NCBI GenBank assembly: GCA_963705305.1
Contig: OY970067.1
Coordinates: 1,536,001-1,600,000, forward strand
Direction of reading: 5' to 3'
Origin: an uncultured Methylomirabilota bacterium
Lineage (GTDB): Bacteria > Methylomirabilota > Methylomirabilia > Methylomirabilales > 2-02-FULL-66-22
Length of the DNA: 64,000 nucleotides
The notes beneath the pieces were generated by a model. That model was given only the letters and a program-made list of their open reading frames with translations, made no database searches and had not been told where the DNA came from. How positions within the stretch are numbered: position 1 is the stretch's first letter; each line of letters starts with the position of its first letter. Below, piece after piece: positions 36,128-55,678 of this stretch. Position numbers and translations under genes: made by a program.

Positions 36128-36418
36128 TTACTGCAGGATGCCGAGGACATCCTCCTCCCGCATGATCAGGTATTCCTCATCGTTCAGCTTCACTTCGCTC
36201 CCCGAGTACTTGCCGAAGAGGATCTTGTCGCCCACCTTCACCGCCATGGGCTGGAGCTTTCCATCGTCGGTGACCTTGCCGGGACCCACGGCGATGACTT
36301 CGGCCTCCTGGGGCTTCTCCTTGGCGGTATCCGGGATGATGATCCCGCCCTTCTTCGTCTCTTTCTCCTCCAGACGCTTGACCAGGATCCGGTCGTGCAA
36401 TGGCTTCATCTTCTTCAT
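36128..36418 (-). CDS. groES: Co-chaperonin GroES
   Basis: [37 protein letters not shown]. Confidence 0.97.
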
Positions 36419-37456: not shown

Positions 37457-37606
37457 ATGCAACAACAGATCCACACGGCGTCTCGATTGGCCTGAAAAGG
37501 TCTCAGCCCTGATGAATCGGGTGGTTAGATGAGATGCTGCGGTGAAGTCTTCGCGTGGACACCGGCGGGAAACACCCGAGATATCGGAGCGGCTCCGATG
37601 GGTTGG
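37457..37606 (-). promoter_or_regulatory. Sigma54 module A (enhancer, IHF-like site, -24/-12)
   Basis: TGGATCTGTTGTTGCAT (37473-37457); AATCGG-N4-TTA at 37515; CCGA-N4-TCGG-AGCGGCT-CCGA-N4-TTGG at 37576-37606. Confidence 0.8.
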
Positions 37607-37709
37607 AGGGGGAGGCGGAACTCAGCGGGCACGCTGGAACCCGAGCGTCTCGATACGGGACGCGAGCGTGGTGGACTTGAGGCGGAGAAACGTGGCGGCG
37701 CCGGCCGGC

Positions 37710-39566
37710 TCACCCCTTCGAAGTCCCCACGGCAACAGGCTGCGCGGTTATCGGGCCGTCCCCCCAGAACCCCAGCAGCTCGCCCGCCCGGGTGTAGGCC
37801 TGCCGGATCCGGTCGAGGTTCTCCGTGAACAGGAGGCCGATCCTCGCGAACGGCTCGAAGACCGGGCCCTGCTCGAAGTTCACCGGGAGCGGGATCACCC
37901 GGGCCCACTTGTCCAGGTTGCCCTGGAGGGCGGCGGTCACGGCGCCCAGACGTTGCGACAGCTCCTCCTTGCCCTTGGCCGCCCGCTCTACGATGGGCGT
38001 GATGATCACGTCCACCGTCTGCTGCACGCGGTGCAGCGCGTCCACCACCGGCTCCGCCAGGGGGGTCACCCGGACGCCCAGCTCGTGCAGGAACTGCTCC
38101 AGGAGCCGCCCCAGGTCCTCCTGGATGAAGGCCTCGGGGACCGCCACGGCACCTTGGGCGCCCCGGCCGGCGCGCTGGCGCTCCGCGTACAGCTCCTGCC
38201 GGAGCCGCGCGGTGTGCGCCCGGTTCACCGGGTCCTTCCACCAGTCCCCCACCAGTCGCTTGGCGGAGAACCGGAGGGCGGCGGTGAAGAGGTCGCGTCG
38301 GAAGAGCGACTCCAGGATGGCGCCCCAGGAGTAGAACTGCTCGGTGGCCTGCATGGCCGCCATCTGCAGCTCGTAGGGAGCGATCCTGCGCGGCTGGTGG
38401 ACGCAGTGGTGCCCGTCGTACAGCTCCCAGTTGTTGCTGAGGATGTCCTTCTTGCCCTGGGCGTAGAGGGTGCGCCAGTCGGACGAGCCGGGGCACGGGG
38501 TGAGGATCATGAATTGGACGGATTCGATGTGGTTGGCGCGGGCGAATCGGGCCGTCTGGTAGATGGTCTCCACGTCGTCCTCGTCGGAGCCCACCACGAA
38601 CATTCCGTGGATCTTGATTCCATGGTCGTGGAACTTGTCGATGGCTCGCTGGATCTTGGCCAGGTCTTGCTTCTTCTTGAAGAGGCGCAGGGTCTTCGGA
38701 TTGATTGACTCGAAGCCGACGTAGACATTGAAGCAGTTGCTCCGGCGCATGAGCTGGAGCAGCTCGTCGTCGTTCACCGTCTCCGTGCGCACCTGGGCGC
38801 CCCACTTGGGCGTGATCCCCTCGGCGATCATGCGGGTCAGCAGGTCCTTGGTGCGTTTCGGGTTGGCGGTGAAGATATCGTCGGCGAAGAAGATGTAGGG
38901 GGTCCCGGCGTGGGTCTGTAGCTCGGCGATCACCCGGTCGATGGAATGGGTCCGGAACGCGCTCCCGTACATCCCGGGCACCGAGCAGAAGGTGCAGGGG
39001 AAGGGACACCCGCGAGAGGTGGCCACCGAGGCAATGCGCTGGCGCCCGTACCCCACCACCAGGGAGAAGTCCGGGATGGGGTTCACATCCAGATCGGTCA
39101 ACCTGGGCTGGTCCGGGTTGTGCGCCTTCTGGCCGTCGCGCCAGCAGGAGAGGCCCTGGATCCCCGCGACCCCCCGGCCCCGCTCGAGGGCCTCCGCGAG
39201 TTCCGGGAAGGCGACCTCGCCCTCCCCGCGGATCACGAAGTCGGCGTGGTCGAGGCCCTCGTCCGGCAGGAAGCTCACGTGGGTCCCCCCTAGGACCACG
39301 GGGATGCCGGCCGCCCGGACCGTGGCGGCCAGGCGGTAGGACGGTGGCGCGGTGGGGGTGATGGTGGAGATGCCCACGAGGTCCGCCGCGAGGACCTCCC
39401 CCATGTCCACGGGGGCGATGTCCTCGATGTAGACCTTCACGTCCCAGCCCCGATCCCGCATGATGGTGCCCAGAAGCACCGACCCCAGGCGGGGGATGGT
39501 GAGCCGACTGTACACGTGGAGGTGGGTCGACGAAGGCTCCACGAGGACCACCCGCTTCCGGTTCAT
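37710..39566 (-). CDS. B12-binding radical SAM protein with C-terminal extension
   Basis: VLGGTH, RGEGE, TSRGCPFPCTFC, FADD, GFES. Confidence 0.92.
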   Translation of the reverse strand: MNRKRVVLVEPSSTHLHVYSRLTIPRLGSVLLGTIMRDRGWDVKVYIEDIAPVDMGEVLAADLVGISTITPTAPPSYRLAATVRAAGIPVVLGGTHVSFLPDEGLDHADFVIRGEGEVAFPELAEALERGRGVAGIQGLSCWRDGQKAHNPDQPRLTDLDVNPIPDFSLVVGYGRQRIASVATSRGCPFPCTFCSVPGMYGSAFRTHSIDRVIAELQTHAGTPYIFFADDIFTANPKRTKDLLTRMIAEGITPKWGAQVRTETVNDDELLQLMRRSNCFNVYVGFESINPKTLRLFKKKQDLAKIQRAIDKFHDHGIKIHGMFVVGSDEDDVETIYQTARFARANHIESVQFMILTPCPGSSDWRTLYAQGKKDILSNNWELYDGHHCVHQPRRIAPYELQMAAMQATEQFYSWGAILESLFRRDLFTAALRFSAKRLVGDWWKDPVNRAHTARLRQELYAERQRAGRGAQGAVAVPEAFIQEDLGRLLEQFLHELGVRVTPLAEPVVDALHRVQQTVDVIITPIVERAAKGKEELSQRLGAVTAALQGNLDKWARVIPLPVNFEQGPVFEPFARIGLLFTENLDRIRQAYTRAGELLGFWGDGPITAQPVAVGTSKG

Positions 39567-39704
39567 CTCGGACTCCGTGCTGGCGGCCTGCTCCGCGCCT
39601 CAGGGATCGGCTCGCACGGCACTGGGAACGCCGGGGCGCTCCTGTCTAAGCCGCGCAGGCCATGCGTGCGCACGCGCAGGGAGAGGCTCCTGGCTCGCGC
39701 CGAT

Positions 39705-39875
39705 TCAGTGCTGCCTGCTCTTCTCCTCGAGGTCCTTGCGCCCTTTCTCGGCGGTCCGGTACTCGCCAGTCATGGTGATGACGGACTTTTTGAGTGAAAG
39801 GACCTTGAAGTACCAGACACCCCCGCCTCCGACAACGAGCCCAATGAGGATTCCCAACCAGAAACTGCTGTCCAT
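39705..39875 (-). CDS. 56-aa single-pass membrane protein (below ORF-track cutoff)
   Basis: AAAGGAG RBS; MDSSFWLGILIGLVVGGGGVWYFKVLSLKK...KSRQH. Confidence 0.7.
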   Translation of the reverse strand: MDSSFWLGILIGLVVGGGGVWYFKVLSLKKSVITMTGEYRTAEKGRKDLEEKSRQH

Positions 39876-40001
39876 GGCATTCTCCTTTCATCCAACCAGC
39901 AGCGAGGTCACAAGGCTGAAAGGCTGGCCGCGCTTCATCTCCTTCATCTTGTTCATCTTGTGAGCGCTCTGGCCATCCAGGCGGCCTGGGAGTGGGACGG
40001 C

Positions 40002-40421
40002 CTACTTGCTGACCAACATAAGCAGCCTGGCACACTCGGAGGCCACCTTGCTATCGGGTGTCTCCTCACCGGGCATCGTCGCCCACCCCTGTTTTTCTAC
40101 GTACTCACTCCGCTGCCACGAATCTGTTTTTTCCAATTCTTTGAGCTTCTGGTCTTTCCCGGGATCCCGGTTGAACTGGACGACACACATCGGTGCCAGG
40201 CGCTTGACGACAGCATCTTCCGCCATCGTCTGCGCCATGCTCCGGGCGGTCCCCCCCGTCACCCATCCGCCCCACGCAAAGCCGATGATCATTGTGAGAA
40301 CAACAGAGCCAACCCATGACCAGAAGACGATCGTTTTCGTCGGGCGCGCCTCATCCCACCGCTGTCGAAGACTCAGCTTCCGCGTTTGTTCCCCGCCTCT
40401 ACCCCCCTTATCCTGCTCCAT
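40002..40421 (-). CDS. Membrane-anchored hypothetical protein, paralog A
   Basis: GFAWGGWVTG, LAP.CVVQF, GWATMPG, ..CA; paralog at 54691-55104. Confidence 0.85.
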   Translation of the reverse strand: MEQDKGGRGGEQTRKLSLRQRWDEARPTKTIVFWSWVGSVVLTMIIGFAWGGWVTGGTARSMAQTMAEDAVVKRLAPMCVVQFNRDPGKDQKLKELEKTDSWQRSEYVEKQGWATMPGEETPDSKVASECARLLMLVSK

Positions 40422-40752
40422 TGTTCTCCTCCTCCGTACGCCACGTGTTTCGACCGGAAACAGCCTTGGGGGTTGTGGTTGATCCAGGCAGATCGTGCAT
40501 TCCCTCCTCGCTGCACTCCTGGGAGTTCGCTCTGGTGCTGCTACGCAGGCACTCCCATTCGGTGCTGTCTGTAGTCCCCCGACTCCGCATCCAATGGCAC
40601 GGCAGGTGGCGATGCCTGCCGCCGCTCACCCAGGCGGCGCAGCTCTTCGCTGGCACGCGTGTAGGCGGCGACTGCGGAGTCCAACACGGCCTTCATCGAG
40701 GCCTCGGATCCCGCCAGGGGGCCGGTGCCGCTGCGGTATACAGGGTCCGCTC

Positions 40753-40989
40753 CTAGATGCTCGCCCAGAGCAGGCGCTGGGCGCCGATCACGAGGACCGC
40801 CCCGATGAACGCGACGACGACCGCCATGAAGAGCCCCGCGCCGGGAGAAACCCCCAGGGCCCGGAAGATCCAGCTTCCCAGGAGGCTGCCGACGAGCCCG
40901 AGGACGATGTCGCCGATCAGCCCGTAGCCGCCGCCCTTCATGACGAACCCGGCCAGCCAGCCGGCCAGCAGCCCGACGAGCACCCACAT
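40753..40989 (-). CDS. GlsB/YeaQ/YmgE stress-response membrane protein
   Basis: VGLLAGWLA...GYGLIGDIVLGLVGSLLG...AFIGAVLVI. Confidence 0.88.
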   Translation of the reverse strand: MWVLVGLLAGWLAGFVMKGGGYGLIGDIVLGLVGSLLGSWIFRALGVSPGAGLFMAVVVAFIGAVLVIGAQRLLWASI

Positions 40990-41229
40990 CGCAAACAGTT
41001 CCAGCGTCCTGGCCCTTCCTCCTTCACCGACTGCGCCGGTCTTCCCCCGGCCCCTCGCGCCGTCTCGCGGGAGGGGCCGCCCCTCCGGTCCGGGCCCCGC
41101 GACGCCCACCGATGGGAAGTGCCCAGCCCGGGCCGGCTGTGCCGAGGATGGGTGGGGACCGCCGTAGACGGCCCCCAGCCGCCCCCCGTACGCCGGCGGC
41201 TCCCTAGATCAACCGACCGGGCCCGACCG

Positions 41230-41805
41230 CTACTTGTCCTTGTGGCTCTGGAACGGCTCCTTCAGCACCACCTTCACGCCGGCGATCGTGCCCGTCACGG
41301 CGTTGCGCACCTGCGCCGCAGCCGCCGAGCCGATCTCGCCCGCAGCCTTGAGCGCCCCCGTCGCGGCGGCCGCGGCGGCCTCCTCCGCGCTCAAGCCGAC
41401 GGCTTTCGCGCCGGCGATCGCACCCTCGACGGCGCCCTTCGCCGCCGAGCCCAGGTCGCCGCCGACCTCGGCCGTGCTCTTGACCAGGGCGGCGGCGGTT
41501 GCGCTCACGGCGTCGAGCGCCTCGCCGCCGACCTCCTTGGTGCCGCGCAGCACGCCGATCACTGCCCCCTTGGCCGCGCTGCCGATGTCGGCGCCGATCT
41601 CGGTCACGCCCTGGACCACTCCGCGCACCACCGCCGAGATCGCCCCGGTGAGCGCCGCGCCCATCTCTCCGGTGCGCGTGACCGCGTTGACCAGGCTGCC
41701 GCTCACCGTGTCGACGACGGCGTCCGTGATCTCACCGACGCCCTTCACTGCGGAGACGATACTGTCCTTTACCGATTTCGCCAGGCTCTTGCTCTCGTCC
41801 GGCAT
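41230..41805 (-). CDS. Ala/Gly/Val-rich repetitive protein
   Basis: Internal repeats such as GADIGSAAKGAVIG / GGDLGSAAKGAVEG. Confidence 0.8.
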   Translation of the reverse strand: MPDESKSLAKSVKDSIVSAVKGVGEITDAVVDTVSGSLVNAVTRTGEMGAALTGAISAVVRGVVQGVTEIGADIGSAAKGAVIGVLRGTKEVGGEALDAVSATAAALVKSTAEVGGDLGSAAKGAVEGAIAGAKAVGLSAEEAAAAAATGALKAAGEIGSAAAAQVRNAVTGTIAGVKVVLKEPFQSHKDK

Positions 41806-42029
41806 GGGAGGCCCCCTTTCTCAGACGATCCCCTGACTTGTGATGGGCCAAATCGCCTGCTGTCGGTTCGCGCCATCAGCGTACCCCCCCCGCGTCGTGG
41901 TGAGGGGGATCGAACACTACTCCATCTGGCCGGAAAGCCGCGGCCGGGCCAAGTCCGTTCAGGAGCGGGGCGGGGGAGTCCACGTCGCAAAGCTGACCCT
42001 GTCCGATACCCCGCGTGTCGAGACCGTCG

Positions 42030-42287
42030 TTACTTGGGCGATCCCTTGCTTCCCTGGGGCCGGCTTGGAGCGCGCTGGGAGTTCGGACTCGGCCAATATC
42101 GCCGACGCGGCGGTGCCATCTTCCGCACCGCTACGCCGTCCTTGGGGCTGGTGCGCGCACCAGCCTTCTCGTCCCGCCCGGCGTTCCACCCTTTGAAGCT
42201 GGCCTTCACGGCGCGGGTCCGTTTTTCCAGGTCGCGCTGGATGACCCGGCGCGCCTCTTCGTCGGAGAGCAATCGTTTGGCCGGCAT
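42030..42287 (-). CDS. Small basic hypothetical protein
   Basis: AAGGAGG RBS; first ORF after sigma54 module B; C-terminus may be read-through. Confidence 0.5.
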   Translation of the reverse strand: MPAKRLLSDEEARRVIQRDLEKRTRAVKASFKGWNAGRDEKAGARTSPKDGVAVRKMAPPRRRYWPSPNSQRAPSRPQGSKGSPK

Positions 42288-42379
42288 GATGCGGCCTCCT
42301 TCTCGATGTGTCGAATCAGCGTTGAGCTTGCCGCCAGGATTATCCTCGTCCTATCTATGCGGTGCGCGCTATTCATCCT

Positions 42380-42528
42380 ATGCAAAGATAGATCCAGCTT
42401 GCTCTCGGAGTGGCGCGAAGAGGTCTTGACGCAGCCGAATCGACTGATTGGATCGGACGCCAGGGTGAAATGTCAGCGGCCGGGGCGGCGGGACCACCCG
42501 AAATCTCGGAGCGGCTCCGAGATACTGG
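42380..42528 (-). promoter_or_regulatory. Sigma54 module B
   Basis: TGGATCTATCTTTGCAT (42396-42380); AATCGA-N4-TTG at 42438; CCGA-N4-TCGG-AGCGGCT-CCGA-N4-CTGG at 42498-42528. Confidence 0.8.
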
Positions 42529-42544
42529 AGGCAGGGCCCAACGA

Positions 42545-42595
42545 TCAGCGGGGACGTTCGAGGCCGAGTTTCTTGATGCGGGATTCGAGGGTGGT
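42545..42595 (-). pseudogene. 3' relic of a second sigma54 activator
   Basis: Encodes TTLESRIKKLGLERPR*, identical to the C-terminus of the 52660 activator. Confidence 0.85.
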
Positions 42596-42611
42596 GTTCT
42601 TCCCATCGCGG

Positions 42612-42725
42612 CCCCCGAGACCTGCGTGCCCACCGGGACGGTGACGACCGCATTGGGGGTCCCGGTGGCCGAGACGGTGGACCGGAGGTCCCCGCGGGTC
42701 ACGGGAATGGTCGAGAAACGAGGAT
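42612..42725 (-). pseudogene. Relic of efflux periplasmic adaptor (MFP) N-terminus
   Basis: PVTRGDLRSTVSATGTPNAVVTVPVGTQVSG. Confidence 0.7.
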
Positions 42726-42769
42726 GGACCAGGCCCCCAGTGGACAATTTTCGGAGCACAACCCTCGCC

Positions 42770-43465
42770 TCATGAGATCGCTCGGGCGATCAGGAAGGCC
42801 GCTCCCGCGGCCAGCCCGCCGATGAGCATCGTTTGAATGGAGCTCCGTACCGGAGCCGCCCCCGTGAAATGCCCTTTCACGTATCCGAATATGGCAAGGG
42901 CGAGCAGCGTGATGGCCACGGACGCCACGAGCGCCGTAGAGGCCTTCGGCTGGAAGATGTACGGCCCGAGAGGAATGAACCCACCACCGATGTACGCACC
43001 GGCGATCGTCACCGCGCTGCGTAGCGCGCGTTTCGGGTCCGGCTTCTCCAGCCCCAACTCAAATCGCATCATGAAGTCGACCCAGGCCATGGGGCGCTTC
43101 CGCATCGCGGCCACCACCGGCGTGGTCTCGTCCGCGGTCATGCCGTAGGTCGTCAGCACGTCGGCGACCTCCGCGGCTTCGGCGTCCGGTTTCTCCGTGA
43201 CCTCCATTTCCTCTCGGTTCCGTTCTGCCTGGTAGTGTTCGGCATCGCTCTTCGCGGCCAGATAGCCACCGAGCCCCATCGCTATGGAGCCTGCGGCGAT
43301 CTCGGCCAATCCCGCCGTCACGATGATCCGCGTGGTGTCAACCGCGCCCGACAGGCCCGCCGCAAGAGCAAACGGCACCGTCAAGCCATCCGCCATGCCA
43401 ATGACAATGTCGCGGACGGTTTCCGAGCCTGTGAAGTGGCCTTCGATATGCGGCGTCTGGGGCAT
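42770..43465 (-). CDS. VIT1/CCC1 Fe/Mn transporter
   Basis: RDIVIGMADGLTVPFAL, AEIAAGSIAMGLGGYL, FMMRFELG. Confidence 0.93.
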   Translation of the reverse strand: MPQTPHIEGHFTGSETVRDIVIGMADGLTVPFALAAGLSGAVDTTRIIVTAGLAEIAAGSIAMGLGGYLAAKSDAEHYQAERNREEMEVTEKPDAEAAEVADVLTTYGMTADETTPVVAAMRKRPMAWVDFMMRFELGLEKPDPKRALRSAVTIAGAYIGGGFIPLGPYIFQPKASTALVASVAITLLALAIFGYVKGHFTGAAPVRSSIQTMLIGGLAAGAAFLIARAIS

Positions 43466-43537
43466 GCCTGTCTCCGATCACGTCACGCTGATCTTCTGGG
43501 TTGGAGCTCCCTGGTAATTGATCTCAGGCGGCCACCG

Positions 43538-43600
43538 TCGCAACGTCTGCGCCTGCTGCAGCGCCTCCCGGCTCTTTTCGGTCATCCGATTTGGGTCCAT
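43538..43600 (-). pseudogene. clpB 5' relic
   Basis: MDPNRMTEKSREALQQAQTL directly after cbpM, then similarity stops. Confidence 0.7.
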
Positions 43601-44025
43601 CCTCGGGCTTCCTCCTCGCGCCTGTGCATGTCGAGCACCACGTCCCCGGCCGGGGAGCGGCCGTCAGCTTCGGCCGGGAGTTCCGGCGGCGCCTCCGGAG
43701 CGCGGCTGAGCTCCTCCCGGAGGCGCTCGATCTCCCCCTCCATCGCCTCCAGCCGGCCCACGAGGTCCAGCACGATGCCTACGGCAACCAGGTCCACCCC
43801 GAGATCGCGACGCAGGCGGATCGCTTTGCGGAGGCGACCCACGGCCAGGACGGGGAACCGCCCAGTCGAGGCATTGCACTGCACCACGTCAACCTGGGTG
43901 TAGGCTTCCAGGGCGGCCGGAGGCAGGCCGCAGCGCAGGGCGAGGTCGTCTGCCGTGAGGTCGTCCGTCTCGTCCTCCACGATCGCCGCGATGTGAATCC
44001 GGATCTCGGCCTCATTGCACGCCAT
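43582..44025 (-). CDS. cbpM: Chaperone modulator CbpM (MerR-like)
   Basis: RLRKAIRLRRDLGVDL...VLDL..RL; follows the DnaJ gene. Confidence 0.8.
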   Translation of the reverse strand: MACNEAEIRIHIAAIVEDETDDLTADDLALRCGLPPAALEAYTQVDVVQCNASTGRFPVLAVGRLRKAIRLRRDLGVDLVAVGIVLDLVGRLEAMEGEIERLREELSRAPEAPPELPAEADGRSPAGDVVLDMHRREEEARGWTQIG

Positions 44026-44069
44026 CAGCCTCCTCCTCTTCCCCCACGCTCCCGCACCCGCCGCGCCCG

Positions 44070-45071
44070 TCAGCGCCACTGGCGAGGGCTGTCCGGGGTC
44101 AGCCGGCCGACCTGTTCGAGCAGGCGGCGTTGCTCCTCCGTGAGCGTCGCCGGCAAGACGAGGCGGAGGCGCGCGTACAGGTCGCCCCGGCTCCCGTCTC
44201 GTCGGGCCAATCCCTTCTCGCGTAGCCGCAACCGCTGACCAGCCGAGGCGCCGGGGGACACCTTGAGCGTGACCGAGCCCTCCAGCGTCGGCACCTCCAC
44301 CTCCGTCCCCACGGCCGCCTCCCAGGGATACACCGGCAGGTCAATCTCGAGGTCGTCGCCGGAGATGCGGTACAGGCGGTGGGGCCGCACCCGCACCACG
44401 AGGTACAGGTCCCCAGCCGGGCCGCCGTTTCTCCCCGGCTCACCCTGACCGGCCAGGCGGAGCCGAGTGCCCCCTCGTGCGCCGGGGGGGATCTGGACTT
44501 CCAGCGTCCGTGGTTTCCCGATCTCTCCTTGCCCGTCACAGGCCTGGCAGGCCCGGTCCTTCGCGACGCCGGTTCCACCGCAGATCGGACAGTCCTCCGA
44601 GCCTTCGACCGTCACCGACCGGCGACCACCCCGGGTGGCCTCCTCCAGCTCCAGGCTCAGGTCGGTCTCGATGTCGCGGCCCGCGACCGGTTGGCGAGGG
44701 CGGCGTTGCCCTCGCGGGCGACCGAAGAGACTGGCAAAGAAGTCGCTGTAGGCGGCGCCATCCCCGCCGCCCAGGTCTCTGTATTCACCCCGTCCGTGGG
44801 GGGGCCCTTCCGAGGGCCGTGTGAAATCGCCCCCCGCCATCCCGTTCGGGCCGAGCTGGTTGTAGCGGGCCCGCTTGTCCGGGTCGGAAAGCACCGCGTG
44901 CGCCTCGTTGATCGCCTTGAACGCCTCCTCCGCCTGCGCTCGCGCTTTGCCGTGATGCAGGTCCGGATGGTGCTTCCGGGCCAGCCGGCGGTAGGCTGCC
45001 TTGATGGCGTCCGTTGAGGCGCCTCGGGACACGCCGAGCACCTCGTAGTAGTCGCGAAACTCGACCGGCAT
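44070..45071 (-). CDS. DnaJ/CbpA-type J-domain co-chaperone with two CxxCxGxG motifs
   Basis: DYYEVLGV, HPD, CPICGGTG, CQACDGQG, GDLY. Confidence 0.92.
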   Translation of the reverse strand: MPVEFRDYYEVLGVSRGASTDAIKAAYRRLARKHHPDLHHGKARAQAEEAFKAINEAHAVLSDPDKRARYNQLGPNGMAGGDFTRPSEGPPHGRGEYRDLGGGDGAAYSDFFASLFGRPRGQRRPRQPVAGRDIETDLSLELEEATRGGRRSVTVEGSEDCPICGGTGVAKDRACQACDGQGEIGKPRTLEVQIPPGARGGTRLRLAGQGEPGRNGGPAGDLYLVVRVRPHRLYRISGDDLEIDLPVYPWEAAVGTEVEVPTLEGSVTLKVSPGASAGQRLRLREKGLARRDGSRGDLYARLRLVLPATLTEEQRRLLEQVGRLTPDSPRQWR

Positions 45072-45079
45072 GGCGGTTC

Positions 45080-45643: not shown

Positions 45644-45687
45644 GATGATTCTCCGGCAGACTCGCTGGGCTGACCCGGATCGCAGCC

Positions 45688-47550
45688 TCAGGCCACCTCA
45701 CGAAAGTCTGCATCTACAACATCGTTCTCGCCTTGCGGTGTCGCGTTCTGGGGGCGCCCGCGAGCCGTATCCAGCGCCGCGGCCGCTTGACGCAGGTCAT
45801 CGGCGAGGGTCCGGATCCGCGCGAGGTCCGCCCCCTCCTTCAGCGCGCGCCGGAGCTCGCTCACCAGCTGGTCGAGGCGGGCCTTCTCGTGCACGGGTAA
45901 CTGGCCCCCAACATCGCCCAGGCGTTGCCCCACCTGGTACGCCAGGGCATCAGCGGCGTTGCGGGTCTCTGCCTCCTCCCGTCGCTTGCGGTCCTCAGCC
46001 GCATGCGCCTCGGCCTCACGGAGCAACCGCTCGATCTCTTTCTTCCCCATCTGGGCGGTCCCAGTCACCGTGATCTGCTGCACCTTCCCGGTGCCGAGGT
46101 CCTTGGCGGATACGCTGACGATCCCGTTGGCGTCAATGTCGAAGGCCACCTCGATCTGCGGGCCTCCCCGGGCAGCCGGCGGGATCCCCTCCAAACGGAA
46201 CTGGCCCAGCGTACGGTTATCCCGCGCCAGCTCCCGCTCGCCCTGCAGCACGTGGATGTCCACGGCGGTCTGGTTGTCATCCGCCGTGGAGAAGGTCTGG
46301 CTCCGCCGCACCGGGATGGTGGTGTTCCGCTCCACCAGCTTCGTCAGCAGGCCTCCCAGGGTCTCCACCCCCAGGGACAGCGGCGTCACGTCCAACAGCA
46401 CCACATCCTTCATCTCGCCCGCCAGCACCGCCGCCTGAATGGCGGCACCCACCGCGACGACCTCGTCGGGGTTGACCCCCTGATGCGGCTCCTTGCCCTG
46501 CGTCAGCTTGCGCACCAAGGCCTGAACGGCCGGGGTCCGGGTCGCGCCCCCCACCAAGATCACCTCGTCGAGGTCCTGTGCGGCCAGCTTCGCGTCCGCC
46601 AGGGCCCGCTCGAAGGGCACCCGGCACCGCTCGACGAGGTCGGCCGTGAGCGCGTCGAACTTCGCGCGGGTCAGTTTCATCTCCAGATGCTTCGGCCCGG
46701 CGGCATCGGCCGTGATGAAAGGCAAACTGAAGGTGGTTTCCGGAACCGCGGACAGCTCGATCTTGGCCTTCTCCGCCGCCTCGATCAGTCGCTGCAACGC
46801 TTGGCGGTCCTTCCGGAGATCGATCCCTTGATCTCGCTGAAACTCCTCGGCGGTCCAGTCCACGATCCGCTTGTCGAAGTCATCGCCACCCAAGTGGGTA
46901 TCGCCGTTGGTGGCTTTCACTTCAAAGACCCCGTCGCCCACGTCCAGGATGGAGACGTCGAACGTCCCGCCCCCCAGGTCGAAGACCAGGATCGTCTCGT
47001 TCTTCTGCTTGTCCAACCCGTAGGCCAGCGCGGCAGCCGTCGGCTCGTTGATGATCCGGAGGACATTCAATCCGGCGATTTTTCCCGCGTCCTTGGTAGC
47101 CTGCCGCTGAGCATCGTTGAAGTAGGCCGGCACGGTGATGACGACGTCCTTCACCTTCTCGCCGAGGTATCGGGAGGCGTCGTCGACGAGCGCGCGCAGG
47201 ACCATGGCGGCGATTTCTTCCGGGGGGTATTCCTTGCCCCCAGCGCGCACCCGGACTGCCTCGCCCGGTCCGGCAACCACCCGGTACGGGACCAGCTTTG
47301 CCTCCGCGGGGATCTCCCCGAACAGCCGCCCGATGAAGCGCTTGATCGAATAGATCGTGTTCTCCGGATTCAGGACGGCCTGGCGCTTGGCGAGCTGCCC
47401 CACCAGCCGCTGCCCATCCTTTGCGAAAGCGACCACGGAAGGTGTCAGCCGGTTCCCTTCGGCGTTCACGATCACCATCGGCTTCCCGCCCTCCACCACC
47501 GCCACGACGGAATTGGTGGTCCCGAAATCAATCCCGACCGATTTGGCCAT
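45688..47550 (-). CDS. dnaK: Chaperone DnaK
   Basis: [32 protein letters not shown]. Confidence 0.97.
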
Positions 47551-47740
47551 CTCGGCCCTCCTCTCCTCAAAGGTACCCGCGAGCGTTCAAAGGCTCGGGT
47601 CGCCAAAAGAGCCCGCCGTCGATGGCGATCACCAACGGGGCGGCCTGAACCCAGTCAGCTCTTCGACGCGCGCGCGAACCGTGCCTCCCTCCAACCAATA
47701 CGTTCCCCTGCGTGCGGATCTCGTGGCCGCGGCATCCGTC

Positions 47741-47878
47741 TTACCGGGACTCCGGCCGGCCGACGGCCACCGGCACCACCGCCATGGGGAAGATCACGGT
47801 CCCCCGCAGTGGCAGCACCGGGAGCGCACCCGGGATCGTGGGGCTGCTCGTCTAGGGATCCGAGTTCTCCGGGCTCAT
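47741..47878 (-). pseudogene. lon protease 5' relic
   Basis: MSPENSDP*TSSPTIPGALPVLPLRGTVIFPMAVVPVAVGRPESR*. Confidence 0.78.
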
Positions 47879-47915
47879 GACCTGCGCTGCACCCTCTTTC
47901 AGCCCGTTTGTGCTC

Positions 47916-47998
47916 GTGTTCGGCATCGCTCTTCGCGGCGAGATACCCACCGAGTCCCATCGCGATGGATCCTGCGGCGATCTCGGCCGGCCCCGCCG
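47916..47998 (-). pseudogene. Internal relic of a second VIT1 gene
   Basis: AEIAAGSIAMGLGGYLAAKSDAEH duplicated from the intact VIT1. Confidence 0.85.
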
Positions 47999-48051
47999 AG
48001 ATGCACGGCCAGAGCGGGGCGACCCTTTCTCGGATCGGCCGAACGCCCCCT

Positions 48052-48387
48052 TCACAACCTCACCATCCGATAGAACATCCTCTTTGCCACCTCCGCCGAG
48101 ACAATGTATGCGATGATGACTCCCCCGATGAGCCCGAAATAGGAAATCGGCAGCTGGCGAAAGCCAAACACCGGTCCGAGCGGGGTGAAGGGGAAGATCA
48201 CCGTTGCGAGGAGAACGAAGAGCGTGGCCATGAACAGACTTGTCGACGGTCGACTCCTGAAGAAGGGCTTCCGACTTCGAATCACAAGCACAATCAACGC
48301 CGCCGACATAACGGACTCCATAAACCAGGCGGTCCGGAATTGATCCGGCGTCGCGTGCAGGATGAGCAACAGGACGCCAAAGGTGAG
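48052..48387 (-). pseudogene. 3' relic of Mg-transporting P-type ATPase (MgtA-like)
   Basis: LTFGVL...FRTAWFMES...LIVLVIRSRKPFFRSRPS...PFTPLG..FGF; no upstream part. Confidence 0.8.
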
Positions 48388-48424
48388 GCCGCCGCAACGA
48401 GGGGCTCGGTGACTCTGATGAGGA

Positions 48425-48769
48425 TCAGGAGCTCCCGCTCCGCCTCGGCATGCGCCAGCGCTGCAGCCGGCTGCCTGTGCGTCTGGTGACCGTATCGAAG
48501 TGAATCACGGGCTGCTTTTGCGACAGCTCGATCGCCGCCAGGACGGCGCGATAATCCTCGGAGCGTAAGCGGAGGAGCAGATCGGCCTGCGATTCCCACT
48601 CCTCAACCAGAGTAATGGCTTCTGAGTTTTCGACATCCTGGTAGAGGTCACACTTGCGGCAGCCCGGGAGCACACGCGTCGGCTCCAACTGGGCGGCGAG
48701 CGTCCGGACCACCTCGCCCCGGGACTGGGGCGCCGTCACGATTCGGAGGGTGGAAATAAGCATAGTCAC
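48425..48769 (-). CDS. ABM (quinol monooxygenase-like) domain protein, paralog A
   Basis: TR..PGC..C.LYQD.E......LVEEWES. Confidence 0.85.
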   Translation of the reverse strand: MTMLISTLRIVTAPQSRGEVVRTLAAQLEPTRVLPGCRKCDLYQDVENSEAITLVEEWESQADLLLRLRSEDYRAVLAAIELSQKQPVIHFDTVTRRTGSRLQRWRMPRRSGSS

Positions 48770-48778
48770 TCTCCTTCC

Positions 48779-49075
48779 TCAGCTCGCCGGGGGATTGTCT
48801 TTATCGCTCCCGGAGCCGAAAGGCCGAGGGCAATCCCCGTGGAGTCCAAGACGTCTCGTCCACTCAGGCGCTGGGGGACGCACTCTCATGTTCACGGCCC
48901 GCGGTCCCTTGTCTCCCAACTCGACATCGAACTCAACGGCCTGCCCTTCCGCCAGGGTGTCGAATCCTCCCCCCTGGACGGCAGACCGGTGAAAGAAGAG
49001 CTCGAAGCCGTCCCATCCCTGGACGAACCCAAAATCTCGCTCCCGGACCAGCCTCCTGACCGTACCCGTTGCCAT
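48779..49075 (-). CDS. Cold-shock domain protein, second copy with read-through C-terminus
   Basis: RDFGFV, LFFH, GPRA; alignment with copy 1 suggests a 1-bp loss near the stop. Confidence 0.8.
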   Translation of the reverse strand: MATGTVRRLVRERDFGFVQGWDGFELFFHRSAVQGGGFDTLAEGQAVEFDVELGDKGPRAVNMRVRPPAPEWTRRLGLHGDCPRPFGSGSDKDNPPAS

Positions 49076-49157
49076 TGTTGCTACTCCTCCCCGAACATCC
49101 GTCCGGATCTCATCGCGTTTCCACCCCCGATTCACCCCGATGCTCTGCGTATCTGCT

Positions 49158-51038
49158 TCACGCCTCCCGCTCCCGGCCGCCCTCTTTGGCTGGCTTCGCG
49201 CCGGCCAGCAGGGTTTGCAGCTCCTCCCCGTCCACCACCTCCTTCTCCAGCAATCGGTGCGCGAGCTGCTCGAGGAGGCTCCGCTGGTCCGTGAGGAGGG
49301 CCCCCACCTTCACGTGCGCCTCGGTGAGGATGCGGCTGGCCTCGGCGTCGAGGAGCCGCGCCGTCTCCTCGCTGTGCTCGCGCGGCGGGGCCAGGCCCGG
49401 GAGGAGGCCCGGCCGGCCATCGCCGTCGAAGGTCATCAAACCGACCTTCTCGCTCATCCCGTACTGGCCCACCATGTGCCGGACGAGATCGGTGGCCCGC
49501 TGGAGGTCGTTCTGGGCACCGGTCGAGACATCGCCAAAGATGATCTCCTCCGCCGTCCGGCCGCCCAGGAGGACGCACAGCCGGTTGAACAGCTCGGAGC
49601 GGGTCATCAGGTACCGGTCCTCCGTGGGGAGCTGCTGCGTGTAGCCTAAGGCTGCGATTCCTCTCGAGACGATCGAGATCTTCGCCACCGGGTCGGTCCC
49701 GGGCAGGCACGCCGCCGCCACCGCGTGCCCGGCCTCGTGGGTGGCCACGATCTCCCGCTCCCTCCCGCTCATCACCCGGGTCTTCTTCAGCCCGGCGACC
49801 ACCCGGTCGATGGCCTCCTCGAAGTCGGCCCGTCCGACCGCCGCCTTGCCCTGCCGGGCGGCCAGGAGGGCGGCCTCGTTCACGATGTTCGCCAGGTCCG
49901 CGCCCACAAAGCCGGAGGTCTGGGCGGCGAGGGCGGCCAGATCGACCTCCGGGGCCACCGTCACCCCCTTGGTGTGGACCAGGAGGATGGCCTCTCGCCC
50001 CTTCCGGTCCGGCCGGTCCACCAGGACCTGGCGGTCGAATCGGCCGGGCCGGAGCAGCGCCGGGTCCAGGATCTCCGGTCGGTTCGTGGCCGCCATGATG
50101 ATGACGCCCTTGTTGGTTTCGAACCCGTCCATTTCCACGAGGAGCTGGTTGAGCGTCTGCTCCCGCTCGTCGTGGCCGCCCAGGGGATTCATCCCCCGCG
50201 CCTTGCCCAGGGCATCCAGCTCGTCGATGAAGATGATGCTCGGCGCATGCTGCACCGCCTGGGCAAACAGATCCCTGACCCGTGCGGCGCCGACCCCAAC
50301 GAACATCTCGACGAAGTCCGAGCCGCTGAGGCTAAAAAACGGGACCTTGGCTTCGCCCGCCACGGCCTTCGCCAGCAGGGTCTTGCCCGTCCCGGGGACG
50401 CCGATCAGCAGGACCCCCTTCGGGATCTTCCCGCCCAGCCGCTGGAAGCGCTCCGGCGTCTTCAGGAACTCGACGACTTCGACCAGCTCGGCCTTGGCCT
50501 CCTCAATCCCCGCGACGTCGCCGAAGGTCACCCCCGTATCCTTCTGGACATAGACCTTGGCCTTGCTCTTCCCGATGGCCATGAGTCCGCCCAGTCCGCC
50601 GCCCCCGCCCATCTTCTTCATGGCGTACTGCCAGATGAGGAAGAAGAGCCCAATGGGGAGGAGCCAGCTCAGCAGCGTCGGGAGCCACGTGTTCGTCGCC
50701 TCGCCGCGGAAGTTCACATTGGCCTGCTGCAGGTCGTGAACAAGCGCGGGGTCGTCCACCCGGACCGTCATGAAGGGCTCCTCACCCGTCCCGGACTTGG
50801 TCAAGGCGTCGATGCGGGCCTTGGGGAGCAGCCCCGCGAGCCCGTCCCGGTTCAGGCGCCCCGTGATGATCTTCGCGCCGATCGCCACGTCGCTGATCTT
50901 CCCCTTCTCCAGCAGCGTCGTGAACTCGCCGTAGGTGAGGGTGTCGACGTGCGGCGCAAAGACGTAGTCCTGCAGCGCCATCAGGAGAAGGAACACGGCC
51001 AGAAAGTACCAGAGGGAGGCGATGTGCTTCTTGTCCAT
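49158..51038 (-). CDS. ftsH: ATP-dependent zinc metalloprotease FtsH
   Basis: Two TM helices, [27 protein letters not shown]. Confidence 0.97.
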
Positions 51039-51044
51039 GGCGTC

Positions 51045-51407
51045 CTATCCCTCCAGGAGGGCGTGTCCAGTCCGTTGCGCCATCCGGTGGCGGCAGACCA
51101 CGGCCTCGGGCTCCACCACGCAGACGCCGCCGCTTTCGGAGCAGTGCCGGCAGGAGAGATTCAACGGGTGGAAGTACCAGTAGCGCACCTCGACCCGGCC
51201 GTGGTGCCCGTCGGGGCAGAGATGGAAGAGGGGATCGGCCGCCAGCGCGGCGTCGGCGTCGCGCATCGCCAGGCCGGCGATCGCCAGCGTGGGCCACCGG
51301 CAGGGGGAGGGCGCGGTCTCCTTCAGGTTCTCGAGGGGGTCCGCCTCCCTCGGAATGACGGCGGTGCCGGGGCCGCTGCTCGGTTCGGTCTCACGTATCC
51401 TATCCAT
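51045..51407 (-). CDS. Cys/His-rich hypothetical protein
   Basis: CPDGHH, CRHC, C..C; overlaps fmdB stop; GGAGG RBS. Confidence 0.55.
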   Translation of the reverse strand: MDRIRETEPSSGPGTAVIPREADPLENLKETAPSPCRWPTLAIAGLAMRDADAALAADPLFHLCPDGHHGRVEVRYWYFHPLNLSCRHCSESGGVCVVEPEAVVCRHRMAQRTGHALLEG

Positions 51408-51696
51408 GTCCCGCCTCCATCTTCTGGTCTGTGCCGACTTTCGAGGGGGCCTGCGCCGCGAGGGGAGCCCTGCCGCTCCTCTCATGGTCTCTCTTCGCCG
51501 CCTCCTGGTAGGATTTCGAGCGATGGTCAGTGGTGTAGAAGCCCGACCCCTTGAAGAGGAGCCCGGCGCCTGCGCTGATCAGGCGGTCCACCTTCTTCCT
51601 GCAGTGCGGGCACCGCGTGAGCGGAGATGCCATGATACTCTGGAAGGCATCGAACCGACGCCCACAGGAGCGGCATTGATACTCATAGGTCGGCAT
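51400..51696 (-). CDS. FmdB-family zinc-ribbon protein
   Basis: MPTYEYQCRSCG..F...CPHC...FKGSGFYTTD. Confidence 0.92.
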   Translation of the reverse strand: MPTYEYQCRSCGRRFDAFQSIMASPLTRCPHCRKKVDRLISAGAGLLFKGSGFYTTDHRSKSYQEAAKRDHERSGRAPLAAQAPSKVGTDQKMEAGHG

Positions 51697-51909
51697 TTAT
51701 CCGTTCTCCCGTAACTCCCCCCAGAGGTCGAGCCACCGCCCCGCCATCCGACACACTGAGGCGTGAGGGTCTCCCTCCTCGCTCCCCTGTGTGCCACGCT
51801 CCTCATCCTCCGGGCGATCTCTGTCTTCCGGGCGGTCGGCCTAGATCGTGGTACGCACTTCCTCCCCCCACTCGTTCGAGGGGTCTTCCTCACCACGTCG
51901 GCCGGGTCC

Positions 51910-52251
51910 TCACCGTGCCGCTTCGCGCCGCAACCCTCGGGCCCACTCGATCACCTCCAAGCCCGCGCGTCTGGCGACCGTGTCGAAATGGATCACGGGT
52001 GGCTTTTGCGCTAGCTCGATCGCCGCCAGGACGGCACAGGAACTTTCGGAGCCTAAGCGGAGGCGCAGATCAGCCTCGGATTTCCACTCCTCCACCAGCG
52101 TGATCGCCCCCTGGTTCTCGATATCGCGGTAGAGATCGCACCGGAGGCAGCCCGGTTGCCCCCGCGTTGGTCCCAGTTGCGCGGTAAGCGTCTGGACCAC
52201 CTCGGCCCGGGAGTGGGGTGCCGTGAGGATTCGCAGGGTGGAAATGACCAT
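51910..52251 (-). CDS. ABM domain protein, paralog B
   Basis: Close paralog of 48425-48769; first gene after module C. Confidence 0.83.
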   Translation of the reverse strand: MVISTLRILTAPHSRAEVVQTLTAQLGPTRGQPGCLRCDLYRDIENQGAITLVEEWKSEADLRLRLGSESSCAVLAAIELAQKPPVIHFDTVARRAGLEVIEWARGLRREAAR

Positions 52252-52319
52252 GGCCACAGTCGTTCCCTTTCGCTTGGATTGCCTCTCGGATGGAATCTCG
52301 CGTCCCTGTGGGATGGAAG

Positions 52320-52469
52320 ATGCAACAACAGATCCACACCAGGCGTCGGGGGAGCAGAGAAGGACTGTGCCCTTCGAAATCAATGAGTTCGCGACGATGC
52401 TGTGGCGGGACTCGAGGGGCCGGGCCGGTGGGAAACACCCGAGATATCGGAGCGGCTCCGACAGGTCGG
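52320..52469 (-). promoter_or_regulatory. Sigma54 module C
   Basis: TGGATCTGTTGTTGCAT (52336-52320); AATCAA-N4-TTC at 52378; CCGA-N4-TCGG-AGCGGCT-CCGA-N4-TCGG at 52439-52469. Confidence 0.82.
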
Positions 52470-52553
52470 AGGGGGAGCGGCACGTCGCGTTAGCGAGCGC
52501 AGCCTGCCCGCCAGAGGACGTCTCTTCCCGCTCTTCAAGGAACGGAGACTTGG

Positions 52554-52579
52554 CCCTTCGACAGGCTCAGGGCGAACGG
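52554..52579 (+). repeat. REP-like half element CCCTTCGACAGGCTCAGGGCGAACGG
   Basis: Short CCCT..AGGG hairpin resembling a widespread intergenic repeat from memory; single copy here. Confidence 0.35.
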
Positions 52580-52659
52580 AATCGTAGGTGGCCTGCCCCC
52601 ACTAATTGATCCAACCGCATGGTAGTTCACACCGAACCATTGGAGGCGGGGCCAGCCGC

Positions 52660-54226
52660 TCAGCGGGGGCGTTCGAGGCCGAGCTTCTTGATGCGGGACT
52701 CGAGGGTGGTGGGCTTGAGGCCGAGCAGCTTGGCGGCTCCGGCCGGGCCGCGGATGTGCCAGCCGGTCTGCTCCAGCGCGGCCACGATCTGCGTGCGCTC
52801 GGCGTCGGCGAGGGTCGGTGGCGCGGCCACACTCGGGCCGGCGGTCGCCCCTAGCGGCACCCGGAGAGTCGAACCCTCGCTGAGGATGACTGCGCGCTCG
52901 ATCACGTTCCGCAGTTCCCGGATGTTGCCGGGCCAGGGGTAGCCCTGGAGCGCCGCCATCGTCTCCTGGGGGATCCGCTCCACGGGCTTGCCGAGCGCCT
53001 GGCCGAATTGCTTGGCGAAGGTCCAGACGAGCAGTGGGATGTCTTCCTGGCGCTCCCGAAGCGGCGGCACGGCGATCGGGAAGACATTCAGGCGGTAGTA
53101 GAGGTCCTCGCGGAAGGTGCCGTCCGCGACCCGCTTGGCGAGGTCCCGGTTGGTCGCGGCGATCACCCGGACATCCACCGTGAGGGTCCGGGTGCTGCCG
53201 ATCCGCTCCAGCTGCCCGTTCTCCAGGACCCGCAGCAGCTTGACCTGCAGCTCCAGCGGGAGCTCGGCGATCTCGTCCAGGAAGAGCGTCCCGCCGTGCG
53301 CCAGCTCGAACCGCCCGGCCTGGCGGGTCAGGGCCCCCGTATAGGCGCCCTTCTCCCGCCCGAACAGCTCGGCCTCGATCAAGGTCGGGGGGAGGGCCGC
53401 GCAGTTGACCGTGACCATCGCACGGTCCTTTCGCCGGCTCCGGCGATGGATGAGCTGCCCGAGCAGTCCCTTGCCGGTGCCGGTCTCCCCCAGCAGCAGC
53501 ACGGCGGTCTCGGTGGGGGCGACGTGGTCCGCCTGGGACAGCACCTGCTGCAGCGCCGGCGAGTTCCCCACGATCTCGCTGGGTTGCGCCTGGGCCGCCT
53601 CGCGCAGATAGGCGTTCTCGGCCTCGAGCTGCTGTTTCAGGCGCGTGGCATCGTCCAGGGCGCGCCGGAGCGCCTGCTCGCTCCGCTGGCGCGCCAGGGC
53701 ATTGGCAAAGATGTCCGCCAGGAGCTGCAGGCGCTGCACCAGGACGTTCCGGCCACTCGCGCTCGGTCCGGAGCGTGCCGAAGGAGAGCGCCCCGAACAC
53801 CCGCCCGCTCGCGGCCAGCGGAAAGATCAGGTTGGACTTCTGGTGGATCTTGCGGAAGGAGACCTGGTCACGCGTGGCCTCGGGGGGGAGCTCCGCCAGC
53901 GTCGCGAAGCGCACGGTCCCGCCCCGCAGCAGCGTCTGATGCACCCAGGGGAAATCCCGGATCGCAAAGAGCCCGGGCTGGGCCGCGAAGTCCGGCACGG
54001 CCCAGGCGTGTGTGATGACCAGGTCGTTCTCCGCCTCCGCCCGCTGCAGGAGGGTGCTGCGGTCCACCCCCAGCGCCTCGACGATGCGCCGCTGGGCCTC
54101 CTCAATCAGCCGGTCCACCTGCTCGGCCGGCACGTGGACGAAGCGGGCCGAGAGGTCGGCGAGAAGCGCCTCGAACCGCAGCCGCTCCTCCAACTCCGCC
54201 CGCAGGCCCTCTTCCGCCCGGGTCAT
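52660..54226 (-). pseudogene. Sigma54-dependent activator (GAF-AAA+-Fis HTH), frameshifted near 53747
   Basis: GAF N-terminus in one frame; [47 protein letters not shown] and HTH in another. Removing one A in CCGGAACGTC joins them (WPDVLVQRL). Confidence 0.88.
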
Positions 54227-54450
54227 GGCGCCACCCGCCGAGGGATGTGAAATTCGGGTAGTACCAAGATCCACACCTATTCGCTCTCCGCGCCGAGACA
54301 CCGTCACCACAGTTCGTCGCGACGGCACCTTACCCTGAAATTAGACCACAATAGCCTTAGTGCATTCAACCCAATTCAACCACCTCGCGGCGATGGCGTT
54401 GGCCGCGTCCCCTCTCTGCAGTGCGCCGCCTCTCCACTCCCCCTCCCCGT

Positions 54451-54600
54451 CCGATCCTTCGGAGCCTCTCCGATATATCGTGCGATTCCCGTCGCGATCT
54501 CCCGGGAGGCTTCATGCCGGCATCACCCCCCAACCGTACGATTCAACGCGACGGACACCTCCTGAGGCCACGGGAAAGCCAAATGGATTCGGCCTTGCAT
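54451..54600 (+). promoter_or_regulatory. Sigma54 module D (divergent from activator)
   Basis: CCGA-N4-TCGG-AGCCTCT-CCGA-N4-TCGT at 54451-54481; reverse AATCGT-N4-TTG at 54543-54531; TGGATTCGGCCTTGCAT at 54584-54600. Confidence 0.78.
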
Positions 54601-55517: not shown

Positions 55518-55678
55518 GGTGCCGGGGGAGCGGACCGCCAATTGAGCAAGACAGATTTCCCCCAGAAGGGATTGCCTCTGAAGCGAGACCTGAGGACCTT
55601 TGGAGCGCAGAGATTAGCGGGCGTCTTCGGCGCTGAAGGCCGAGGACGTTTGCGCAAGGTAGGGCCGTGCAAGCGCGG
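55518..55678 (+). repeat. 161-bp direct repeat, copy 2
   Basis: Matches 21157-21317. Confidence 0.95.

Follow-up and report, generated by a model that had tools for sequence, protein, structure and literature searches.

A predicted sigma-54 regulon of an FhlA-clade activator and its repeated promoter module in a Methylomirabilota island

Modules and activator in the window

This study was concerned with an element of about 150 bp that occurs four times (modules A to D) in a 64,000-nucleotide stretch of contig OY970067.1 from an uncultured Methylomirabilota bacterium. The whole stretch is called the window, its genome is designated G000, and other positions in G000 carry the prefix C1. An earlier note, made from the letters of the window, had read the modules as sigma-54 promoters under an activator encoded between C and D. 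Our analysis finds an undescribed sigma-54 regulon of an FhlA-clade activator that is real and well supported, and for which a stress function is plausible. The modules, with the open reading frames (ORFs) that they head and the sequences next to them, are as follows.

37457..37606, minus strand: module A; sites 37595-37606 and 37576-37587, IHF-like 13-mer 37515-37527, -24/-12 core 37457-37473; predicted start near 37447; heads a 66-aa ORF, a 158-aa ORF, groES and groEL
37622..37720, minus strand: relic of the activator's C-terminal helix-turn-helix tail, directly upstream of module A
42380..42528, minus strand: module B; sites 42517-42528 and 42498-42509, IHF-like 13-mer 42438-42450, -24/-12 core 42380-42396; predicted start near 42370; heads a GroEL-N-terminus-like ORF, a 191-aa ORF and a transglycosylase-associated protein
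42545..42610, minus strand: relic of the activator's C-terminal tail, upstream of module B
52320..52469, minus strand: module C; sites 52458-52469 and 52439-52450, IHF-like 13-mer 52378-52390, -24/-12 core 52320-52336; predicted start near 52310; heads an ABM-fold gene, an FmdB zinc ribbon, a 120-aa ORF, ftsH, a cold-shock gene and a second ABM-fold gene
52480..52643, minus strand: a first half-site, broken, behind the activator stop codon, and about 150 bp of other DNA that contains a short repeat also present elsewhere in the genome
52660..54225, minus strand: activator of the GAF-AAA+-Fis type from the FhlA clade, frameshifted by 1 nt near 53747
54451..54600, plus strand: module D; sites 54451-54462 and 54470-54481, IHF-like 13-mer 54531-54543, -24/-12 core 54584-54600; predicted start near 54610; divergent from the activator; heads a small conserved protein that is module-led also in two genus relatives (G005 and G010)

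All four modules (window 37457-54600) were confirmed in position and strand. Each comprises two 12-bp palindromes of the CCGA-N4-TCGG type, a 13-mer resembling a site for integration host factor (IHF), together with a GG-N10-GC core. An enhancer, an IHF bend and a -24/-12 element make up the textbook sigma-54 architecture, and this reading of the earlier note is supported by the GG-N10-GC core in 4 of 4 modules. Its distances also held. The palindromes are 7 bp apart in every module, the end of palindrome 2 lies 103, 102, 103 and 103 bp from the first G of GG, and the 13-mer ends 41, 41, 41 and 40 bp before the T of TGG (41-42 bp when counted to the G). Other details required correction. The core is TGGAT-N6-TTGCAT, not TGGAT-N7-TTGCAT, and the two palindromes are perfect in C but carry one mismatch in A, two in B and one in D. 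The intervening DNA does diverge, but its spacers keep 45-50% identity against 28-33% by chance, and A and C share 92% identity over 53 nt. The activator relic reported before module B is present, and a second one, overlooked at the time, precedes module A. Modules C and D were said to flank the activator. D does so divergently, but C is parted from it by the broken half-site and about 150 bp, although the activator end is joined directly to module C in contigs of two public runs.

The same note called the regulon self-contained, which does not hold, because the window activator is frameshifted and the only intact copy found in G000 lies 1.2 Mb away at C1:366269-367834. This copy encodes 521 aa, matches the window gene at 1598 of 1599 nt, and has its own module directly after it and a divergent module before it. 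Thus no repair is needed to test the activator. A group II intron reverse transcriptase lies between the intact activator and its divergent module (L002:18660-19952, which is G000 C1:363660-364952). The extra base at 53747 is missing from every contig listed there from four public runs; the frameshift may be an assembly error or real, since those contigs may stem from the identical intact copy or from relatives. One of the runs, X1, may be that of the source sample. The closest relatives of the activator come from records titled Methylomirabilota or Methylomirabilis, and Walker A and B are intact. Its GAF fold is confident and generic (pLDDT 90.5) and has no cysteine, so that a bilin role is unlikely; H73, W94, D120 and S131 of this domain are conserved. 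A structure search with the domain returned generic GAF and bilin-binding domains, and no ligand-bound close relative was found (best sequence hit E 0.0095). G000 has a single rpoN (PF04552, 208 bits, RpoN box present) and, by motif search, three IHF/HU-like genes of unassigned subunit type.

Copies, recognition and spread of the promoter

A hidden Markov model (HMM) of the four modules found four more full-length copies in the 5.65-Mb genome beyond the window (C1:363410, 367842, 953877 and 3358482; E 3e-26 to 5e-17), and the next match had an E value of 0.33. The set described earlier as four-copy is thus part of a set of eight copies at four loci. Related islands of the genus hold more, with 22 modules in G005, 10 in G006 and 13 in G010, counted in the fetched island stretches only, which with the eight of G000 gives 53 modules in total. 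The pattern (regex) search had given 57, and four loose G000 matches were removed because they had no HMM support; the same pattern made 2 matches on the reversed genome and missed some HMM hits. The reversed module pattern made no matches in 61 genomes.

Conservation among the modules is confined to particular parts. Within a search window of 108-122 bp, the distance from site 2 to TGG is 111-116 bp in the 53 modules and exactly 114 bp in 34 of them. Pairwise identity in 48 non-redundant modules is 0.70 for site 1, 0.81 for site 2, 0.90 for the -24 element and 0.97 for the -12 element, against 0.45-0.48 for spacers, 0.32 for downstream DNA and 0.28 by chance. Scores against the IHF consensus peak at -54 (mean 6.0 of 9 versus 2.6), and a score of at least 7 is reached there in 34 of 48 modules versus 1 of 48 in a control window. 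An A/T periodicity of 11-11.5 bp in the spacer is marginal (p 0.03) and is not used as support. Back-to-back divergent modules occur at G005 C1:245332/245357 and 268783/268960, G006 C63:108683/108729 and G010 C45:94557/94598; in the G006 and G010 pairs, the -24/-12 cores on the two sides appear to share a single enhancer pair.

The claim that this activator family binds the palindromes is supported by three kinds of sequence evidence: co-occurrence within the genus, the position of modules after activator genes, and covariation between the recognition helix and the site. First, among 21 genus genomes, the module is present in 8 of the 9 with an activator helix-turn-helix at least 76% identical and in none of the 12 without it; the lone exception, G003, is an 82% complete assembly. 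A stricter module pattern found nothing in 40 genomes of other families, as did its reversed forms. With a phylum-wide pattern, 2 of 151 genomes gave a match, and both belong to this genus.

Secondly, the layout recurs behind FhlA-clade activator genes. Tandem sites with a -24/-12 core were found within 300 nt of the stop codon at 43 of 86 FhlA-type activator loci, above the 99th percentile of shuffles, and at none of the 27 other activators of G000. The 86 loci are those left from 126 after 23 without a helix-turn-helix match and 17 redundant or too short were removed. The 43 positive loci are from records titled Acidobacteriota, Gemmatimonadota, Bacteroidota, Thermodesulfobacteriota, Myxococcota and others, and from metagenome contigs. 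Several distant loci carry canonical TGGCAC cores. In four cultured organisms, similar tandem sites were seen by eye beside relatives of the activator, with a matrix hit in 2 of the 4.

Third, the site changes with the helix. The 19 loci with the helix KPTTLES carry TCCGA-N4-TCGGA, mostly with period 19 and at a distance of 111-114, whereas the 9 with KRTTLQS carry TGCC(G)A-N4-T(C)GGCA with period 18 and at a distance of 118-120. The first gene differs too. The one conserved neighbour is an ABM-fold gene, which follows within 900 nt of the activator in 23 of 86 loci and in 14 of the 23 KPTT loci that pass the layout test, and 35 of 37 aligned ABM-fold members contain CxxC. At KRTTLQ-type loci (L154, L175-L181 and L185) the activator is followed by the promoter and then by a STAS-like gene of about 93 aa, and most of them then carry a gene for an extracytoplasmic function (ECF) sigma factor, Pfam-checked in L175. 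This order suggests a sigma-54-to-ECF cascade at those loci.

The modules also retain signs of how they spread. In 12 of 53 modules the DNA just upstream matches the last 30 nt of the activator, versus 0.1% of random sites; in four of these it belongs to a whole activator, and in the other eight, A and B among them, to a relic. Since modules lie behind the activator's last codons, the promoter appears to have spread by copying. By rough calls, the first genes after 51 modules fall into 26 families. Across genomes, modules resemble each other most when they precede the same gene family (0.64, versus 0.50-0.51 otherwise and 0.33 when shuffled), and for 39 of 51 modules the nearest neighbour is in another genome. 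Together these two results indicate that the cassettes are old within the genus and have been reshuffled. The regulon is thus, with good support from these comparisons, larger than the earlier note supposed and apparently built by promoter copying.

The island and its genes

The four window modules all fall within a block of 34 kb that has a 161-nt direct repeat at either end (21157 and 55518). Its main features, in addition to those above, are as follows.

21157..21317, plus strand: left copy of the 161-nt repeat; its beginning resembles a tRNA-Leu 3' end in reverse complement
34418..36418, minus strand: groES-groEL of the island, which lack a CIRCE box and are predicted to be under module A; an identical copy lies at C1:370.9-373.1 kb
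45688..51038, minus strand: genes from ftsH to dnaK, in the same direction as module C; between 47550 and 48425 are relics of a cation ATPase, VIT1 and a Lon-like gene
51910..52257, minus strand: ABM-fold protein with CxxC, downstream of module C
55518..55678, plus strand: right copy of the 161-nt repeat, 95% identical to the left; fur and katG lie beyond it

The block encodes a giant GH94 protein like cyclic glucan synthase, a fatty acid desaturase, cold-shock proteins, GroES/EL and a B12 radical SAM protein. Further genes are those for a transglycosylase-associated protein, VIT1, cbpA/cbpM-like proteins, grpE, dnaK, ftsH and two ABM-fold proteins, together with several relics. Both katG and fur lie outside the repeats and have no module. 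As to the earlier claim that the activator family controls chaperones, FtsH and VIT1, module C is co-directional with the genes from ftsH to dnaK, and control of dnaK-grpE-cbpA-cbpM-VIT1 would need read-through across 874 bp of gene relics. The other groES/EL locus of G000 carries a CIRCE box, unlike that of the island. The first ORF after module B (85 aa, 42030-42287, minus strand) derives from the GroEL N-terminus. Its relatives precede groES/EL in G005 and G010, and one occurs in L009, so that it may be no relic but a conserved small protein.

The name "stress regulon" used in the earlier note drew on gene content. The window itself has fewer general-stress markers than the largest island, that of G005, where a Pfam scan of 96 of the 137 called ORFs identified CsbD, six BON proteins, YtxH, DUF948, three DUF3309 proteins, entericidin, dodecin, PRC-barrel and OmpA. 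It also identified trehalose-phosphate synthase, a universal stress protein (USP), hemerythrin, DnaK, GroES/EL, a piece of FtsH, KaiC/KaiB and CheB/CheR-PAS proteins. Many of these families are targets of sigma-B, sigma-S or EcfG elsewhere. Target families are shared among the genes that follow modules in G000, G005, G006 and G010. At G005 L087:5606-15479, a CheB-CheR-PAS protein, a hybrid kinase, kaiC, two kaiB genes and a PAS protein stand directly ahead of a PAS-GAF form of the activator.

The genome also bears marks of mobility. Three blocks of the window (34374-36625, 40775-41973 and 52632-54230) are 99.9-100% identical to C1:366265-373139 and have sharp ends, and one block shared by the window and C1:366-373 kb ends inside a palindrome. 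The identical blocks may reflect recent exchange or gene conversion, duplication, or assembly collapse (the genome's contamination figure is 6.49%). Remnants resembling att sites at a tRNA-Leu 3' end lie near three of the four module loci and are scattered in G000 at C1:319595, 360554, 365643, 465585, 946477, 1528832, 2851524 and 4044281, in addition to window 21157-21317 and 55518-55678. One of them precedes a frameshifted serine recombinase near C1:360642-361446, and another abuts tRNA-Leu at 4044163. Other elements of the window include a DDE_3 transposase element at 991-2171, with about eight near-identical copies elsewhere in the genome, and a 70-200 nt repeat at 21386-21608, with about 18. 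A low-GC stretch (about 46%) at 60579-62368 on the minus strand holds an AAA_21/AAA_15 ATPase beside a partner that has no annotation; the two may be a defence or toxin-antitoxin pair.

Mechanism, alternatives and known systems

From these sequences, the module is probably a sigma-54 promoter with its own enhancer, fired by the FhlA-clade activator through an IHF bend. Two activator dimers would bind the two 14-bp palindromes (TCCGA-N4-TCGGA) with a 19-bp period. IHF would bind between about -54 and -41, counted from the T of TGG, and bend the DNA, and the activator oligomer would then open the sigma-54 complex at TGGATC-N5-TTGCA, with transcription starting about 12 nt beyond. The ancestral unit, of a kind found across phyla, would be the activator gene, its own downstream promoter and a small first gene. 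Within the genus the promoter would have been copied, often with the activator's last codons (seen as relics), before many unrelated island genes. The resulting regulon would have 8 to more than 20 promoters. In G000 the window modules would be served in trans by the activator that is intact, at C1:366 kb. As signal, a small ligand bound in the GAF pocket, which has no cysteine, is probable. The predicted targets are chaperones, FtsH, small membrane and periplasmic proteins, and trehalose and cyclic glucan synthesis. By their content, these targets would form a general-stress or growth-arrest programme, an assignment that we favour slightly. The first gene, ABM-fold with CxxC or STAS in the sister clade, could act as a feedback or redox module; for the ABM-fold protein the feedback role is a guess by analogy with HycA. 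We entertain, as a possibility falling somewhat short of even odds, the broadest form of this model, a general stress response run by sigma-54 in which FhlA-clade activators with exchangeable sensors would share one DNA-binding helix and a stereotyped, portable promoter. In that form the promoter would be taken from the 3' flank of the activator and set before new genes, and there would be a regulon of more than 20 promoters, a feedback or redox role of the first gene, and a helix-to-site code.

Several results weigh against these proposals. At half of the activator loci, 43 of 86, the layout test fails, and its scoring rule was hand-made after the sequences had been seen. Support for IHF is weaker beyond the genus (14 of 32 versus 4 of 32). 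Shared descent inflates both conservation and co-occurrence; the activator moves along with its island. In other groups, varied genes follow the promoter and have no clear link to stress, and no promoter multiplication was found in 400 kb from five genomes of other groups, where the matrix scan gave 8 hits, few of them above shuffles and none in three genomes, and a pattern search gave 3 hits. In addition, G000 has a second sigma factor of the RpoD/RpoS type that could run a stress response itself.

The alternative that survives best keeps the same promoter mechanism and drops the stress programme: the activator would sense a specific metabolite or redox cue, and the genes would be cargo gathered on mobile islands. 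We consider this rather unlikely. Activator relatives in other phyla have varied sensors (GAF, PAS, receiver) and stand beside unrelated genes (cyanate/nitrate transport, MsrQ/DoxX, SDR enzymes, globin, OmpA), many island genes are relics, and 12 of the 21 genus genomes have neither the activator helix-turn-helix nor the module in their assemblies. However, the recurrence of the same target families in four genomes, the stress markers of the G005 set and the missing CIRCE box of the island groES/EL are on the side of a stress programme.

It is improbable that the repeats are what is left of island segments that were duplicated, or hot spots of recombination, with most copies no longer working as promoters. 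The residual identity of the spacers (45-50%), the activator-tail relics, the identical blocks with one end within a palindrome, and the att-like remnants would all fit such an origin. Yet the functional elements are far more conserved than the spacers, the length is held at 111-116 bp, identity drops to near chance just after the -12 element, and the pairings of modules with gene families are old and were kept.

Because the sigma-54 contact loop and the -24 box are both non-canonical, the activator might instead act at the palindromes chiefly as a repressor, or some other factor might read the -24/-12-like box. The loop is GAYTGA, not GAFTGA (GAYTGA in 32 of 41 aligned relatives), and the box departs from the TGGCACG consensus, with TGGATC in 36 of 53 modules; both facts also count against our proposed mechanism. 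In the available text of PMC3162934, changes at the loop Phe usually or often cut activity, and homologues of bacterial enhancer-binding proteins (bEBPs) with altered loops that depend on sigma-70 are described. On the other hand, Tyr variants of the loop are listed among active ones in the available text of PMC4641369. Homologous layouts in other phyla have canonical TGGCAC-N5-TTGC cores, some with GAFTGA activators, and only 2 sigma-70-like sites were found in 36.5-56 kb against 1.3 expected. A repressor or another factor is still less probable than inactive leftovers. A structured RNA, terminator or small mobile element is very improbable, and structured RNA was rejected. The inner halves do form a hairpin just behind the activator stop codon, but no Rfam match was found within window 30-60 kb and the modules do not fold better than shuffled sequences (z -0.7 to -1.3). 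Conservation also extends to the outer half-sites, and the distance to the GG-N10-GC core is fixed.

The enhancer-IHF-sigma-54 mechanism favoured here is itself textbook, and works like that of any IHF-assisted sigma-54 promoter. Thousands of environmental proteins are annotated as "formate hydrogenlyase activator" with no known site or target, and this clade gains a candidate site, a spacing and a first helix-to-sequence rule, together with a regulon growing by promoter copying whose source is still visible. If true, the stress reading would add a sigma-54 route to the general stress response, which usually runs through sigma-B, sigma-S or EcfG, and the helix-to-site code could let such regulons be read off in many uncultured phyla. 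The earlier note knew of no description, and none of the site or the regulon was found in the literature, with subscription papers, figures and supplements (including the logos of PMC4641369 and PMC10084136, which might contain a related site) lying outside the search.

The regulon can be compared with known systems in several respects. The general stress regulons of sigma-B, sigma-S and EcfG/PhyR share targets with these islands, namely CsbD, BON/OsmY-like, YtxH, entericidin and transglycosylase-associated proteins, trehalose synthesis and USP. Those regulons are run by sigma-70-family factors, whereas here the promoters are of the -24/-12 type, the activator is ATP-dependent and the islands are patchily distributed. 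No protein of G000 exceeded the model cut-offs (RpoS 211 versus 379 bits, SigBFG 102 versus 234) in a comparison that covered the RpoS and SigB/F/G models, EcfG/PhyR not being among them.

The activator is 45% identical to FhlA and 43% to HyfR over about 390 residues, these being the closest named activators, and has a similar C-terminal helix-turn-helix and the same sigma-54 logic. FhlA, HyfR and the activator fall in one supported clade (100/98, midpoint root only) of 19 FhlA-type rows and one long-branched other bEBP of G000, in which the activator stands in a separate subclade (99/98). The possibility that the activator is FhlA itself was rejected, because it scores 375 against the NCBIfam FhlA cut-off of 830 and the family matrix is weak on Escherichia coli targets. 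In the fdhF, hyc, hyp, hydN and hyf regions the matrix stays near background (best tandem 2.2 versus about 27), and the distance is 67-78 bp versus 111-120. The activator also has one GAF domain in 521 aa versus 692 aa in FhlA, and no formate dehydrogenase or hydrogenase genes were found among 62 window ORFs or the 117 island ORFs scanned. The FhlA site CATTTCGTACGAAATG, as published in the available text of PMC4987338, differs from the palindrome here. The best tandem score in 53 kb of E. coli DNA lies in hycH (17.9; L103 about 8200-8240) and is probably due to chance. A search of E. coli DNA gave only zraR among the matches listed.

Two described systems have a similar layout. PexR of Myxococcus xanthus is a GAF-AAA+-helix-turn-helix activator with tandem palindromes upstream of sigma-54 stress-gene promoters; it binds CACCG-n6-CGGTG and controls ahpC and katB via a Zn/Fe GAF domain (PMC12754779, available text). 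Here the palindrome is different, the GAF domain is cysteine-free and katG has no module. RedR1/RedR2 of Aromatoleum anaerobium have three aligned sigma-54 promoters with a conserved upstream activating sequence (UAS, about -136 to -120), an IHF site and conserved spacing, and serve a catabolic resorcinol pathway; the likeness to them is one of layout (PMC10084136, available text).

Two further systems resemble the regulon in its distribution. The low-oxygen lxa locus of Burkholderia cenocepacia is an island regulon with one motif at 17 intergenic points; it has BON proteins and USP in common with the islands here, as well as a cation ATPase and an ATP-dependent Zn protease. Its motif is the Anr/Fnr-like TGA-N6-TCA, and no sigma-54 layout was found in the available text of PMC3721108. 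Putative mobile promoters, as presented in the available text of PMC3575422, are similar stretches of upstream DNA before unrelated genes, as are the modules before their 26 first-gene families. Most module pairs fall below the threshold of that work (80% identity over 50 nt ahead of non-paralogous genes), which A and C reach, and in the present case the repeated unit is a whole enhancer-IHF-core promoter traceable to the 3' flank of the activator. The regulon thus resembles putative mobile promoters and is distinct from FhlA, PexR and lxa.

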